Shown here in pieces: positions 11,501 to 59,203 of a stretch of DNA of 64,000 bases. The notes under the pieces were generated by a model. The model saw only the letters and a list, made by a program, of their open reading frames with translations, did no database searches and had not been told where the DNA came from. The translations under genes were made by a program, and so were the position numbers. The DNA comes from Mustelus asterias (taxonomy: Eukaryota), in the NCBI RefSeq assembly GCF_964213995.1, contig NC_135823.1:496001-560000 (forward strand), written 5' to 3'. Position 1 is the first letter of the stretch. Every line of letters begins with the position of its first letter.

Positions 11501-14500
11501 TCGCAAATCCACCAACCTTTGTGTCGTCTGCAAACTTACTAACCAATCCAGTTACATTTTCCTCCAAATCATTTATACAGATTACAAACAGCAGCGGTCC
11601 CAGCACTGATCCCTGAGGAACACCACTTAGCACAGCCCTCCATTCAGAAACGCACCCTTCCACTGCTACCCTCTGTCTTCTTTGACCGATGTGGAGATGC
11701 TGGCGTTGGACTGGGGTAAACACAGTAAGAAGTTTAACAACACCAGGTTAAAGACCAACAGGTTTATATGGTAGGAAAAGCCACACAAGCTTTCGGAGCT
11801 CCAAGCACCTGAAGGGGCTTGGAGCTCCGAAAGCTTGTATGGCTTTTGCTACCAAATATACCTGTTGGACTTTAACCTGGTGTTGTTAAACTTCTTACTG
11901 TGTTCTTTGACCGAGCCAGTTTTGTATCCACTTTGGCAGCTCACCTCTGATCCCATGCGACTTCACCTTCAGAACCAGTCTGCCATGAGGGACCTTGTCA
12001 AAGGCCTTACTGAAGTCGATGCAGACAAGATCCACTGCCCTACCCTCATCAATCATCTTTGTCACTTTCTCGAAAAACTCGATCAAGTTCGTGAGACACG
12101 ACCTCCCGTTCACAAAACCTGCACATCTTTGGACACTAAGGGGCAAATTAGCATTGCCAATCCACCAAACCCAAACATCCTTGGAGTTTGGGAGATAACA
12201 GGAGCACCCGCGGGAAACCCGGTGTAACTGAATGGGATTGGAGTAGAGAGAGACGAAGGGATGAATAAATGGTTCACCGCCATGCTGTGATAGAGTGCGA
12301 CACTGGGGATATCATGACACATTTCAATTTTACACACTGACAGATTGGTCGCTGACCTTCAGACACATAACGGTGTCTTAGCCAGATAAAAGAAGTGGGA
12401 GAGAGGAAGAGGCCATTCGGTTTATCTCGTCTGCGCTGCCGTCCAATAACACCATGGCTAAGCGTGTACATAAACATCACTTTCCCGCCCTTTCTCTTAC
12501 CCATTAATCTATCCCTTCTGGCGAAAGTGTTTCAGTGATTAAACATCCACGGCTATCTACGGTAGCGAAGAAGAGTTAAAATATCGGAAAACGAAACTGG
12601 GAGGGCTGTGATAGGGCCGTTGTGATTTAGATCTTAATGGAGATGCCCGCAGAGACATTTGTAATTTACAAAGTTGGACTGCTCTCAGTAAAGTGTCCCG
12701 TTAACATTAAATAGATTGAAAAATGGTCATTGTGAATAGCTACCTCTCTGAGATGAAACACTTTCACTGAGAATACTTTCACTGGAGTTGACCTGAACGG
12801 CGCATGTACAGCGAGCGCCGCTTCTCCAAGTTCCCGCCGGGAGGTTGATGTAACTCCTGACGGTGTAGGTCCCGTCCGGCTCCAGTGTCCCTGAATCGGT
12901 CAGTCCCTCGGGATCCCGTCCCGAAACATTCCAGCGGACGTGAAAGGAACCGGGAGACACGCCTCTGACCAAGCACAACAACGGGACTCTTTCCATGGCG
13001 GAAGTCTCATCCAGCGGTGGAGCGAGGAGGAATATGGTGGGAGAACCCGCTAAATCCGGCAAAACAAAAGGGGAACTCATTGACAAATGGAACAGGCCAC
13101 ATTAATTGCTCTGAGATACCACACCAATGGAATAACAATGGAATTTACCTGTAATCACTAACTTGGAGCCGTTTCCGAATATTTGGGCCATGTTCTGGGA
13201 ACTGCGGGTTGCACAGTAATACATTCCAGAATCATTTATCCGGGAATCCGCAATGATTAGTGTATAAATACGCCCTTTTTCAGAAATCTCGCTGGAAAAC
13301 CTCCCCTCAGCTACGTTGTTCTGGAACGCTCTGTAAACGAAATCCATTTCGTTTCTCTCCCTCTGTCTGTACCAGAGGACATGTATAGCAGCTTGACCCT
13401 GGATGCGGCAGCTGAGATGAACAGGACTCCCAGCAGGGAGAGTCTGAACCGGCGGAGATTGGGACAAATTGGTCTGAGACACTGTACCTGGGAAAGAGAG
13501 AGAGAGAGAGAACAACAGTCACCTCAAGTTACGGAGCATTCCCTGAAGACAACCAACTGAAAGCCAATTGGGAGTAAACCTCAAACCAGCCTTCCATCCA
13601 TTGACACTTCCCGCTGTATCGGGAAAAGCAGCCAGCATAATTAAGGACCCCACGCACCTCGGACATTCTGTCTTCCACTTTCTTCCGTCGGGAAAAAAGA
13701 TACAAAAGTCTGAGGTCACGTACCAACCGACACAAGAACAACTTCTTCCCTGCTGCTGTCAGACTTTTGAGTGGACCGACCTCACACAAAGTTGAGCTTT
13801 CCCTACACCATGATTATGATGGTAACACGACATTCTGCACTCTCTCCTTTCCTTCTCTGTGTTCGGTATGCTTTGGCTGTATAGTACGCAACAAACAATA
13901 AATTTCATTCTATAGTAATACACGTGACAATGATAAATCAAATCAAATGAAATCACAGAAATGCCCAATTCAGAAAAAAAATCGCACCACTAAAATCGTT
14001 CTTATTATGGTGTTAGTTGCCCCATTTTCCTCCTCCCTTTCGAAAGGTACAATATCAGTCCATTCACCAGTAAACCTGGTTTAAACACTGGGGAGGGGGC
14101 ACATGGGAACTGTGTGATGTTAATCACAGAGAGAGCTTCAGTGGAATTAGGTTTTTCAACTATTGCTTACATCCCGTGTCTCTCCTTATACAAAAGCAAA
14201 TGACTGGGGATACTTGAAACTGAAAACAAAAACAGAAATGCTGGAAAACCTCAGTCGGGTTACGGGAATTGTGATCAGTGCCGACTCGATGAGCCAAGTG
14301 GCCTCCTTGAGCACTGAACAAACTGACTCTATGATTCTCGGTCTATGAGCATCAGTGGAGAGAGAATAGACCCGACGTTTCGAGCCTGGATGACCCTCGG
14401 TCAGAGTTCCATTGCCTCTCCGCCGATGCTCTCAGAATCCTAGAATCATAGAATCCTTACAGTGCAGAAAGAGGCCGTTTGGTCCATCGAGTCTGCACCG

Positions 14501-15506
14501 ATCATAATCCCTCCCAGACCCGATTCCCGCAAACCCAAATATTTACACTGCTAATCCCCTGATACGAAGGGGCAAATTAAAATGGCCATTCAACCTAACC
14601 CGCGCTTCTTTGGACTTTGGGAGGAAAGCGGAGCACCCGGAGGAAACCCACGCAGACACGGGGAGAACGTGCACACTCTGCAGACAGTGACCCAAGCCGG
14701 GAATCCAAGCCAGGTTCCTGGCGCTGTGATGCAGCAGTGTTAACCACTGTGACGCTGAGATGTTCCAGCATTTTCTGTTTTGCTTCGTTTCTTCTTCTCC
14801 TCCGTTGACTTTGGCCGTTAAAGTGTGTTCAAAAGTTTATAACTGACTCTGATGTTCTACTTGGAATGCTTTCTCTCCAAAGTGGCCAATATTGTTAACG
14901 GAGGCGATTCACACAGCATATCTCAGGAGAAATGGCAATTCGGATTAATTCCATTCTAACCATTGTTATTAACATTTGTTGCATTGTTAAGTTAAACTTG
15001 CACGCCAAATCACACCTTATAGCATCGCAGAAGACGGGGTCGGGGGCGGGGGGGGGGAGGGGGGCGGTGGGGGGTGGGGGGGGGGGGGGGTGGGGGGGCG
15101 GCGGTGGAGAGGCCGTTCGGCCCTTCGACTATGTGTTGAATCTTTGAAAGATTTCGCAAATGTTACTCAATTTTCCCCCTTTAAATATGCACCCAATTCC
15201 CCCATTTTGAAAGTTCCAATTCCCCCGTTTGAAAGTTCCTGTTGAATCTGCTTCCTCGGCCCTTTCAGGCGGAGCCTTGCAGATCACAACAACTCAGATG
15301 GGTTAAAAAAAACTCCCCTCATCTCCCTCTCTGTTATTTTTACCGAATTCTTCAATCCATGTTCCGTTGGCTCCAGACACTCCTACCAATGGAAACATTT
15401 TCTGCCTCTTCGCTCTATCTAAGTCCTTCTCCACTATATCTGAGTATAATGAGGATATCTCACCCTGAAAGAGATGGAACAGTGCACAGATACCGAGGAA
15501 AATCAT
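5545..15506 (-). CDS. Gene A: non-rearranging VJ-C1 immunoglobulin-superfamily type I transmembrane receptor with cytoplasmic TxYxxL motif; 6 coding exons (15464-15506, 13149-13487, 12744-13049, 8571-8690, 8375-8433, 5545-5589), 303 aa
   Basis: All introns are GT..AG with compatible phases (1,1,1,1,0). Exon lengths 43+339+306+120+59+45=912 nt form one open frame: [107 protein letters not shown]. Every exon has a homologue in gene B. Confidence 0.88.
5870..7710 (-). mobile_element. Two CR1 LINE fragments in gene A intron 5
   Basis: ORF 6119-7078 RT ([25 protein letters not shown]) plus a second 3' fragment at about 7260-7710. Confidence 0.9.
7711..8176 (+). mobile_element. Rex1/Babar LINE 3' end
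   Basis: Same 3' sequence as 1-836, with (ATCAA)n tail. Confidence 0.75.
8375..8433 (-). CDS. Gene A exon 5, cytoplasmic [20 protein letters not shown]
   Basis: Acceptor CTCTTTCTGACAG|GA, donor GAG|GTGAAT; 59 nt, the same length as the gene B homologue (shared DEE). Confidence 0.82.
8571..8690 (-). CDS. Gene A exon 4, stalk with Cys, uncharged transmembrane helix and basic stop-transfer
   Basis: Acceptor [52 protein letters not shown]; donor AGAG|GTAGCG; 120 nt; homologue at 49623-49700. Confidence 0.88.
8958..9270 (-). mobile_element. HE1-type V-SINE
   Basis: V-SINE core plus CR1-derived tail. Confidence 0.7.
10180..10610. repeat. Tandem array of about 52-bp V-SINE-derived unit
   Basis: Repeats of CCAATCCACCTAACCTGCACATCTTTGGACACTAAGGGGCAATTTAGCATGG. 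Confidence 0.85.
10610..12115 (-). mobile_element. CR1 LINE RT fragment interrupted by a Penelope-like insertion
   Basis: ORFs 11895-12146, 11427-11723, 11176-11445 and 10856-11197 are consecutive CR1 RT pieces. Confidence 0.9.
11690..11902. mobile_element. Short palindromic Penelope-like insertion
   Basis: Inverted pLTR arms; 12-bp TSD TTCTTTGACCGA at 11678-11689/11903-11914. Confidence 0.8.
12744..13049 (-). CDS. Gene A exon 3, C1-set Ig domain
   Basis: Acceptor GGATTTAG|CG after a 99-nt intron; [40 protein letters not shown]; donor AGAG|GTAGCT; 306 nt. Confidence 0.95.
13149..13487 (-). CDS. Gene A exon 2, V-set domain with germline-joined J-like segment ([10 protein letters not shown])
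   Basis: Acceptor CTCTTTCCCAG|GT, canonical Cys, WYRQ, GRFS, DSGMYYC, FGxG and donor ACAG|GTAAAT; 339 nt. Confidence 0.95.
13587..13953 (+). mobile_element. Rex1/Babar LINE 3' end in gene A intron 1
   Basis: [15 protein letters not shown] and (ATCAA) tail. Confidence 0.75.
14437..14750 (-). mobile_element. HE1-type V-SINE
   Basis: Head, core and (TTCTATGA)-type tail. Confidence 0.75.
15464..15506 (-). CDS. Gene A exon 1, signal peptide [14 protein letters not shown](G)
   Basis: ATG at 15506, hydrophobic 14 codons plus a phase-1 G, donor CAGG|GTGAGA; homologous leader in gene B. Confidence 0.85.
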
Positions 15507-58612: not shown

Positions 58613-59203
58613 TTCGATCAGACAGCCAGTTACCTATCCAATCGGCCAACTTTCCCTCTATCCCAAACCTCCTCATTTTCATCATAAGCCGACCATGGGG
58701 CACCTTATCAAACGCCTTGCAAGTTAATCTCAAGAGAATCCTGAACTTGGATTCCCAAGTTCCTTCACGTTTCCTATTTCTAAATTCACCCCCATTTAGA
58801 AAGTAATCTACACCTCTCCTCTTCGTACCAAAGTGTGTAACATCACACCTTCCCACAATATATTCCATCAGCCATTCCAATATCAATATGTCTCATCATT
58901 TACTGCCTTTTGCAAGTTTAATATCATTTGAGAGCGTTATAATTGTGTCTATTCTATTCAGTTCAGGTCAGTACTATATACGAAAAAGTACTACCCTCGA
59001 TCGACATCAACTGGCAATCTCCTTTAATCTGAGACAGAGCTGTTTACAACTACTCTCTGCTTTCACCTTGGCCAATCCTGCATTCAGTGTTCTTCTTTCT
59101 TCATCCTATGATATTTGTAACAAGTCCGTGATGTGGAACTTGAAAAATGCGGTCCTATTGTGAAGTCATCCATTAATATCAGCTGCCTCTCGGAAACCTA
59201 CTG

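Follow-up and report, generated by a model that had tools for sequence, protein, structure and literature searches.

A stretch of 64,000 nucleotides from contig NC_135823.1 of Mustelus asterias (assembly GCF_964213995.1, positions 496,001 to 560,000), hereafter the window, was analyzed for insertions of a Penelope-like element into another retroelement, a long interspersed element (LINE) which we take to be CR1 on the basis of its motifs. The window was vertebrate DNA rich in repeats, which by its repeat types and its non-rearranged V-C1 genes would come from a cartilaginous fish, and 18,068 of its 64,000 bases were identified by tblastn as CR1-type open reading frame 2 (ORF2) sequence. The reverse transcriptase (RT) of CR1 ORF2 was detected as an RVT_1 match (E=1.3e-27) on 61871-63031, to which the host copies aligned, and an esterase-type ORF1 as a GDSL lipase match (E=5e-10) at 48965-49423, with an ORF2 copy lying downstream. 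Five copies of the Penelope-like family were found, and three of them interrupted different CR1 copies at one and the same nucleotide of the RT region (Table 1).

Table 1. Positions in the window of the Penelope-like copies, their target-site duplications (TSDs), host CR1 copies and empty CR1 sites (SINE, short interspersed element; pLTR, pseudo-long terminal repeat)
Feature	Position	Strand	Remark
TSD copy, site 1, element 3' junction	11678..11689	-	12/12 identical to 11903-11914
Penelope-like insert 1	11690..11902	-	two head-to-head pLTR arms (84/90 identical) and tail
TSD copy, site 1, element 5' junction	11903..11914	-
TSD copy, site 2	32575..32586	+	12/12 identical to 32791-32802
Penelope-like insert 2	32587..32790	+	inverted pLTR arms (81/85) and tail
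TSD copy, site 2	32791..32802	+
TSD copy, site 3	57989..57997	+	9/9 identical to 58613-58621
Penelope-like insert 3, reversed relative to host CR1	57998..58612	+	inverted arm 113/113, ORF end, hammerhead core, tail
TSD copy, site 3	58613..58621	+
Host CR1 copy 1, RT remnant without 5' part	10707..12119	-	tblastn
Host CR1 copy 2, without endonuclease region	31737..33769	+
Host CR1 copy 3	57077..58718	-	ends 97 bp upstream of site
Same family in SINE tail, insert 3818-4365	3807..4376 with TSDs	+	11 bp TSD, 10/11
Older subfamily copy beside SINE head, outside CR1	41200..41923	-
Empty CR1 sites	about 6934, 23820, 27350, 46935, 62800
Empty CR1 target, perfect inverted half-site pair	46934..46955	-	12 nt spacer

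The coordinates and TSDs given for the three inserts in an earlier sequence-only reading of this DNA were exact, the duplications being perfect over 12, 12 and 9 bp. Read in the CR1 sense, all three TSDs ended in GAA and were followed by GACAGAG, GCCAGAG and GACAGAG at sites 1, 2 and 3, respectively, so that the same-nucleotide break claimed there was recovered; at all three sites it lay after the first base of the second Arg/Ser codon in the motif W-L-x-x-R-R-Q-R. Inserts 1 and 2 ran parallel to CR1 and insert 3 was reversed, as had also been noted. Eight CR1 copies in the window spanned the site, three of them filled and five empty. The chance that three of five uniformly placed insertions fall on the same position of the CR1 consensus was 5.6e-8 for exact coincidence and <=3.8e-5 with a tolerance of ~13 nt, both values applying to this one selected window without correction for the number of windows scanned.

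Pairwise identity was 61-73% among the host CR1 flanks and 87-96% among the element 3' ends. Because the hosts diverge more than the inserts, and because TSDs and orientations differ, the three insertions are independent events as judged by sequence comparison, in agreement with the earlier statement that they are not copies of one chimeric master. A single chimeric CR1 master and gene conversion between CR1 copies were both rejected on this contrast in identity together with the host-specific TSDs. Template switching of CR1 onto element RNA was rejected as well, the host resuming on both sides of the insert with a duplication.

The element was identified by its anatomy, no element RT being present within the window. 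Each insert was composed of a pLTR with an inverted, 5'-truncated copy arranged head to head, and a tail of ~35 nt extended past the inverted arm at one end only, the 3' end of the insert. Insert 3 additionally carried the ORF's final 49 codons (58122-58268). A minimal hammerhead core of the form CTGANGA-stem-CGAAA was located in the longer copies at 58483, 58080, 3910 and 41791; these putative ribozymes, recognized from sequence only, folded in stem II with a z of -1.1, and no match at the gathering threshold was returned by the Rfam scan of the candidates. Since the arms, the ~35-nt tail and the hammerhead core match the anatomy described in the available parts of PMC8557442 and PMC3846280, the family was assigned to the Penelope-like elements. 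From the family anatomy, its endonuclease would be of the GIY-YIG type, the window holding the 49-residue C-terminal remnant alone. This remnant had no Pfam match, and its nearest family-bearing atlas cluster carried GIY-YIG on 15% of members (score 0.84), a weak lead.

The two remaining copies, one in a SINE and one outside CR1, were as the sequence-only reading had described them, and its caution that the preference is not absolute also proved right, with three of five window copies at the site. TSD length varied among the four TSD-bearing copies (12, 12, 9 and 11 bp). In the old copy at 41200, a 49-bp piece (41852-41900) was an inverted duplicate (94%) of 42216-42264, 350 bp downstream, which suggests a templated insertion at the 5' junction of this copy. 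Another and older family, its arms likewise head to head and its hammerhead-like core decayed, was seen at 29256-29512, 28241-28351, 14212-14406 and 8252-8297; it is likely another Penelope-type family by its sequence features, and none of these listed copies was at the CR1 site.

Inspection of the target revealed that the TSD is flanked by half-sites G(A/C)CAG in an inverted pair, one on each strand. Read 5' to 3' on their own strands, they were GCCAG and GACAG at site 1, GTCAG (in a Trp codon decayed to a stop) and GCCAG at site 2, GACAG and GACAG at site 3, where a different half-site is used, the spacer is 8 nt and the TSD is shorter, and GCCAG and GCCCA at the SINE-hosted copy. All eight TSD edges of the four TSD-bearing copies preceded such half-sites, allowing 0-4 nt of microhomology. 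The CR1 half-sites, 12 nt apart, are contained in the codons for W-L and for R-R-Q. When five long CR1 copies were scanned, the inverted pair was present at the site in three, and no other position was shared; of the other two copies, one was interrupted by insert 2 and one was without the motif. The SINE-hosted copy represents a case independent of CR1, with a chance of match of about 3e-4 for a motif defined afterwards from the CR1 sites. That the pairing recurs in this copy points to a general preference for a sequence which the CR1 codons satisfy. The endonuclease preference for the CR1 RT site proposed by the sequence-only reading stood as a base-precise preference, with which chimeras from other assemblies agree, though more as a sequence preference than as recognition of CR1 as such; the reading described one half of the target and overlooked the half-site that lies inverted on the opposite strand.

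ORFs called across element junctions in public assemblies were used as an outside test at the protein level. A query of 30 residues from the element end gave 24 matches among 50%-identity representatives, comprising one unrelated protein (P0026), one without flank (P0021) and 22 junctions; P0030, in the cluster of P0015, was also left out of the counts, and P0020 was kept with a flank of three residues. Three of the 22 junctions joined CR1 ORF2 in frame (P0010, P0017 and, more weakly, P0008), and one, P0010, did so at the same codon as the window sites (chance about 0.01); the query that found it was nearly all element sequence. With another query holding 11 site residues, four further junctions were obtained, none at the site, so that the non-targeted total was one junction at the CR1 site and 25 elsewhere. 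P0025 was considered as a site junction, having scored above control against the site, and was counted elsewhere since its end was not W-L-x-x-R. The share of 1/26 may understate site use, because same-site chimeras may fall into one cluster at 50%, while the share of 3/5 in the selected window overstates it. Exact pattern scans yielded no loci in viral, metagenome and prokaryote genome contigs.

A search with P0010, biased to short, truncated CR1 ORFs and not to site position, returned eight matches: P0010 itself, three more CR1-element chimeras at the same codon (P0031, P0032 and P0033), two element junctions elsewhere and two CR1-only proteins. P0032 and P0033 continue in another element frame, which is absent from the query, and were therefore retrieved by CR1 words alone; two of the four proteins so retrieved thus carry the element at the site. 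The four chimeras all ended in W-L-S-H-R-S, and from these residues their junctions would fall at the same base as the window sites, since the terminal Ser is explained by one CR1 A plus element bases. They differed in host, junction phase and element subfamily, and each was found on one contig. P0032 and P0033, with a junction in common, may go back to a single event, which leaves at least three independent outside events. All four were in the reversed orientation, the class most visible as an ORF. Elsewhere among the junctions, those of P0011 and P0016 both lay four codons past the same V-V-T-P-G motif, a possible second hotspot; the P0011 flank, without Pfam match, presumably resembles CR1 ORF1.

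These results are, in our judgment, somewhat better than evenly explained by a short symmetric target preference of the Penelope-like endonuclease, which the CR1 codons W-L-x-x-R-R-Q-R happen to satisfy as a base-precise hotspot. The enzyme, a predicted dimer, would nick each strand directly 5' of G(A/C)CAG, the CR1 codons supplying two inverted half-sites 8-12 bases apart, and the two nicks would leave 3' overhangs of 8-12 nt. [quoted passage not shown] Both orientations were indeed seen, as a symmetric target predicts. Because ORF2 covers over a quarter of the window DNA and the pair is the only recurrent one among the CR1 copies scanned, the site would be the single commonest good target. 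The mechanism agrees with the behaviour of the anole Poseidon protein, a predicted dimer which, according to the available text of PMC11167929, cleaves and extends both strands and starts at two sites bounding the tail. In the 25 outside non-site flanks, back-translated, CTG(G/T) occurred 8-17 nt upstream at 4.9 versus 2.2 +/- 0.6 in shuffled sequence (p=0.001), which gives weak backing to the half-site model.

Several observations weigh against this explanation. In the outside flanks neither the full pentamer CTG(G/T)C (p=0.11) nor TG(G/T)C (p=0.59) was enriched, the overlapping control CCT(G/T) scored the same as CTG(G/T) (p=0.001), eight motifs were tried, and two flanks contributing to the signal may be one repeat position. 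The window homologues of the P0006, P0008 and P0017 junctions had no G(A/C)CAG downstream, and the copy at 41200 had no clear TSD. Filled and empty CR1 sites did not differ significantly in half-site quality (Fisher p=0.14). Six strict inverted pairs were present outside CR1 in the window, all empty, compared with three of four CR1 sites with GAA-G(A/C)CAG filled (about p=0.03 by hand count), so the five-base half-sites may be less than the whole signal. Moreover, the characterised Penelope/Poseidon enzymes favour AT-rich DNA, 5'-ATT-3', in the available text of PMC11167929.

The shortfall of filled pairs outside CR1 is what dedicated targeting would produce, in which the enzyme evolved, like a homing endonuclease, to recognise a longer CR1 RT sequence and is sloppy elsewhere, with a safe haven or suppression of a competitor being selected. 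Three of eight CR1 sites were filled against none of the six strict pairs, GAA preceded the nick at all three window sites and was compatible with all four outside chimeras, the site was used by two element subfamilies in several CR1 subfamilies, and half of the proteins found by CR1 words alone carried the element there. We nevertheless consider it the less likely course, a serious but minority possibility, given the single site junction in the non-targeted outside sample, the use of both orientations, the variable TSD length, the SINE-hosted copy that fits the short motif without CR1 context, and hosts that are truncated remnants. A bolder version of it, a Penelope lineage with a homing-like preference for conserved CR1 RT codons which takes the genome's dominant LINE for its niche and disables active CR1 masters upon hitting them, is doubtful; if true, it would mean that one retroelement class preys on another at its RT gene.

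It is improbable that the site is set by priming or DNA structure, namely loose nicking that succeeds where the nicked end pairs with element RNA or where a quasi-palindrome forms a cleavable structure. Microhomology of 1-4 nt between element ends and TSD ends was indeed present at most junctions, and the inverted arm begins with CACAG or CAG, like the target half-site. The tail, however, matched the CR1 site no better than it matched positions elsewhere in CR1 (none of four empty targets above control, fractions 0.28-0.94), the TSD interiors differ, the half-site arms are just 4-5 bp, and the anole element initiates internally without homology to the DNA that is cut, in the available text of PMC11167929. 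A target mimicking the element's own tail was likewise unsupported by the four empty targets. Explanations by chance, by descent from a single chimeric CR1 master or by gene conversion among CR1 copies are very improbable and largely refuted: the window was chosen from many and the outside same-site share is far under that of the window, but these readings face p values of 6e-8 to 4e-5, hosts less alike than their inserts, host-specific TSDs, differing junction phases and orientations, and at least three more independent events in other assemblies.

The sequence-only reading had gone on to claim that the element parasitises and inactivates CR1, which was not borne out: all three hosts were 5'-truncated remnants lacking the endonuclease region, and 25 of the 26 non-targeted outside junctions were elsewhere. 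Host 1 reached about 205 bp beyond the site in the upstream direction, and host 2 had 8 stops in 598 aligned amino acids versus 4 differences in 85 between the arms of insert 2. By these sequence comparisons, the insertions look like entries into dead CR1 copies, while it is possible that the 5' parts of the hosts were lost after insertion. Since the site is within the RT domain and upstream of the motif F-A-D-D, insertion into a full-length CR1 would kill that copy. The hotspot is read as a safe landing place in dead repeats, and its role as a weapon against CR1 is unsupported.

Other features were noted in the window. A nearly intact CR1 ORF2 in three open pieces, with the target site empty, was located at 61054-63793 (+), and a run of N marking an assembly gap at ~35996-36412, the window containing 408 N in total. 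At 12727-13518 (-), a non-rearranged V-set exon with a J-like F-G-x-G motif at its end was followed by a C1-set exon (Pfam), and a second C1 gene related to it was found at 50240-50827 (-; Pfam). These V-C1 genes resemble the VJ-C1 antigen-receptor-like genes treated in the available part of PMC10751288.

GIY-YIG homing endonucleases such as I-BmoI and I-TevI also nick both strands and target conserved coding sequence; they act as monomers that nick one strand after the other at long, asymmetric sites, and gene conversion is their means of spread. The endonuclease of the window element would belong to the same superfamily, but would differ by a stagger of 8-12 nt, symmetric half-sites and reverse transcription. 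Compared with target-specific retrotransposons of the Tx1L/R2 type, the base-precise site is shared by the three window sites and, by codon, the four outside chimeras, whereas most copies of that type sit at the target and in a fixed orientation, unlike the 1/26 outside and 3/5 in the window found here and the two parallel and one reversed inserts. Tx1L and Zepp are LINEs with APE endonucleases. Insertion of Tx1L into Tx1D (available text of PMC6719617) and nested insertion of Zepp (bioRxiv 10.1101/2020.06.13.149070, in the part available) likewise have a mobile element as preferred landing site and are read as safe havens, and Tourist is another known case of element-into-element targeting (PMC6719617, same text). 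Tx1L, however, targets a DNA transposon and Zepp itself, while the window element is of a class unrelated to CR1 and enters it in both orientations with a minority of its insertions. Selaginella PLE-X, as described in the available part of PMC8557442, resembles the window family in its precise position within a multicopy conserved sequence, 28S ribosomal DNA; it has no endonuclease, whereas the window family has a putatively endonuclease-like C-terminus, a target in a retrotransposon ORF and mostly dispersed copies.

Little is known of target choice and cutting by Penelope-like elements, one full-length protein with an AT-rich preference having been studied in vitro so far according to the available text of PMC11167929. 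If true, a pair of inverted half-sites spaced by a single helical turn would record in the genome the action of the predicted dimer as well as two-strand priming, which would in turn account for the head-to-head pLTR structure, and the pair offers a defined substrate for biochemistry. If true, the CR1 RT hotspot would be a new element-into-element pairing in which safe haven versus competition is testable in CR1-rich genomes. We found neither a Penelope hotspot in the RT of CR1 nor a target made of inverted half-sites described in the literature covered, with Repbase, supplements and most subscription journals outside its scope. Among endonuclease-containing Penelope-like elements, anole Poseidon PAc (PMC11167929) and Adineta Pen2 (PMC3846280), in the available parts of both papers, share with the window inserts the inverted 5'-truncated pLTR, a 30-40 bp tail at one end, the hammerhead core and TSDs of 8-12 bp, and the inserts are as expected from their cleavage and extension of both strands with two start sites. 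Their targets are AT-rich (5'-ATT-3') or microsatellites in these texts, in contrast to the GC-containing inverted pair here, and the window family differs from both in having one base-precise hotspot in another element's ORF. Element-into-element targeting was already known, as was precise targeting by endonuclease-less Penelope-like families in 28S ribosomal DNA (PMC8557442, in part); what is new is the inverted half-site pair flanking the TSD, which is found at the SINE-hosted copy as well.

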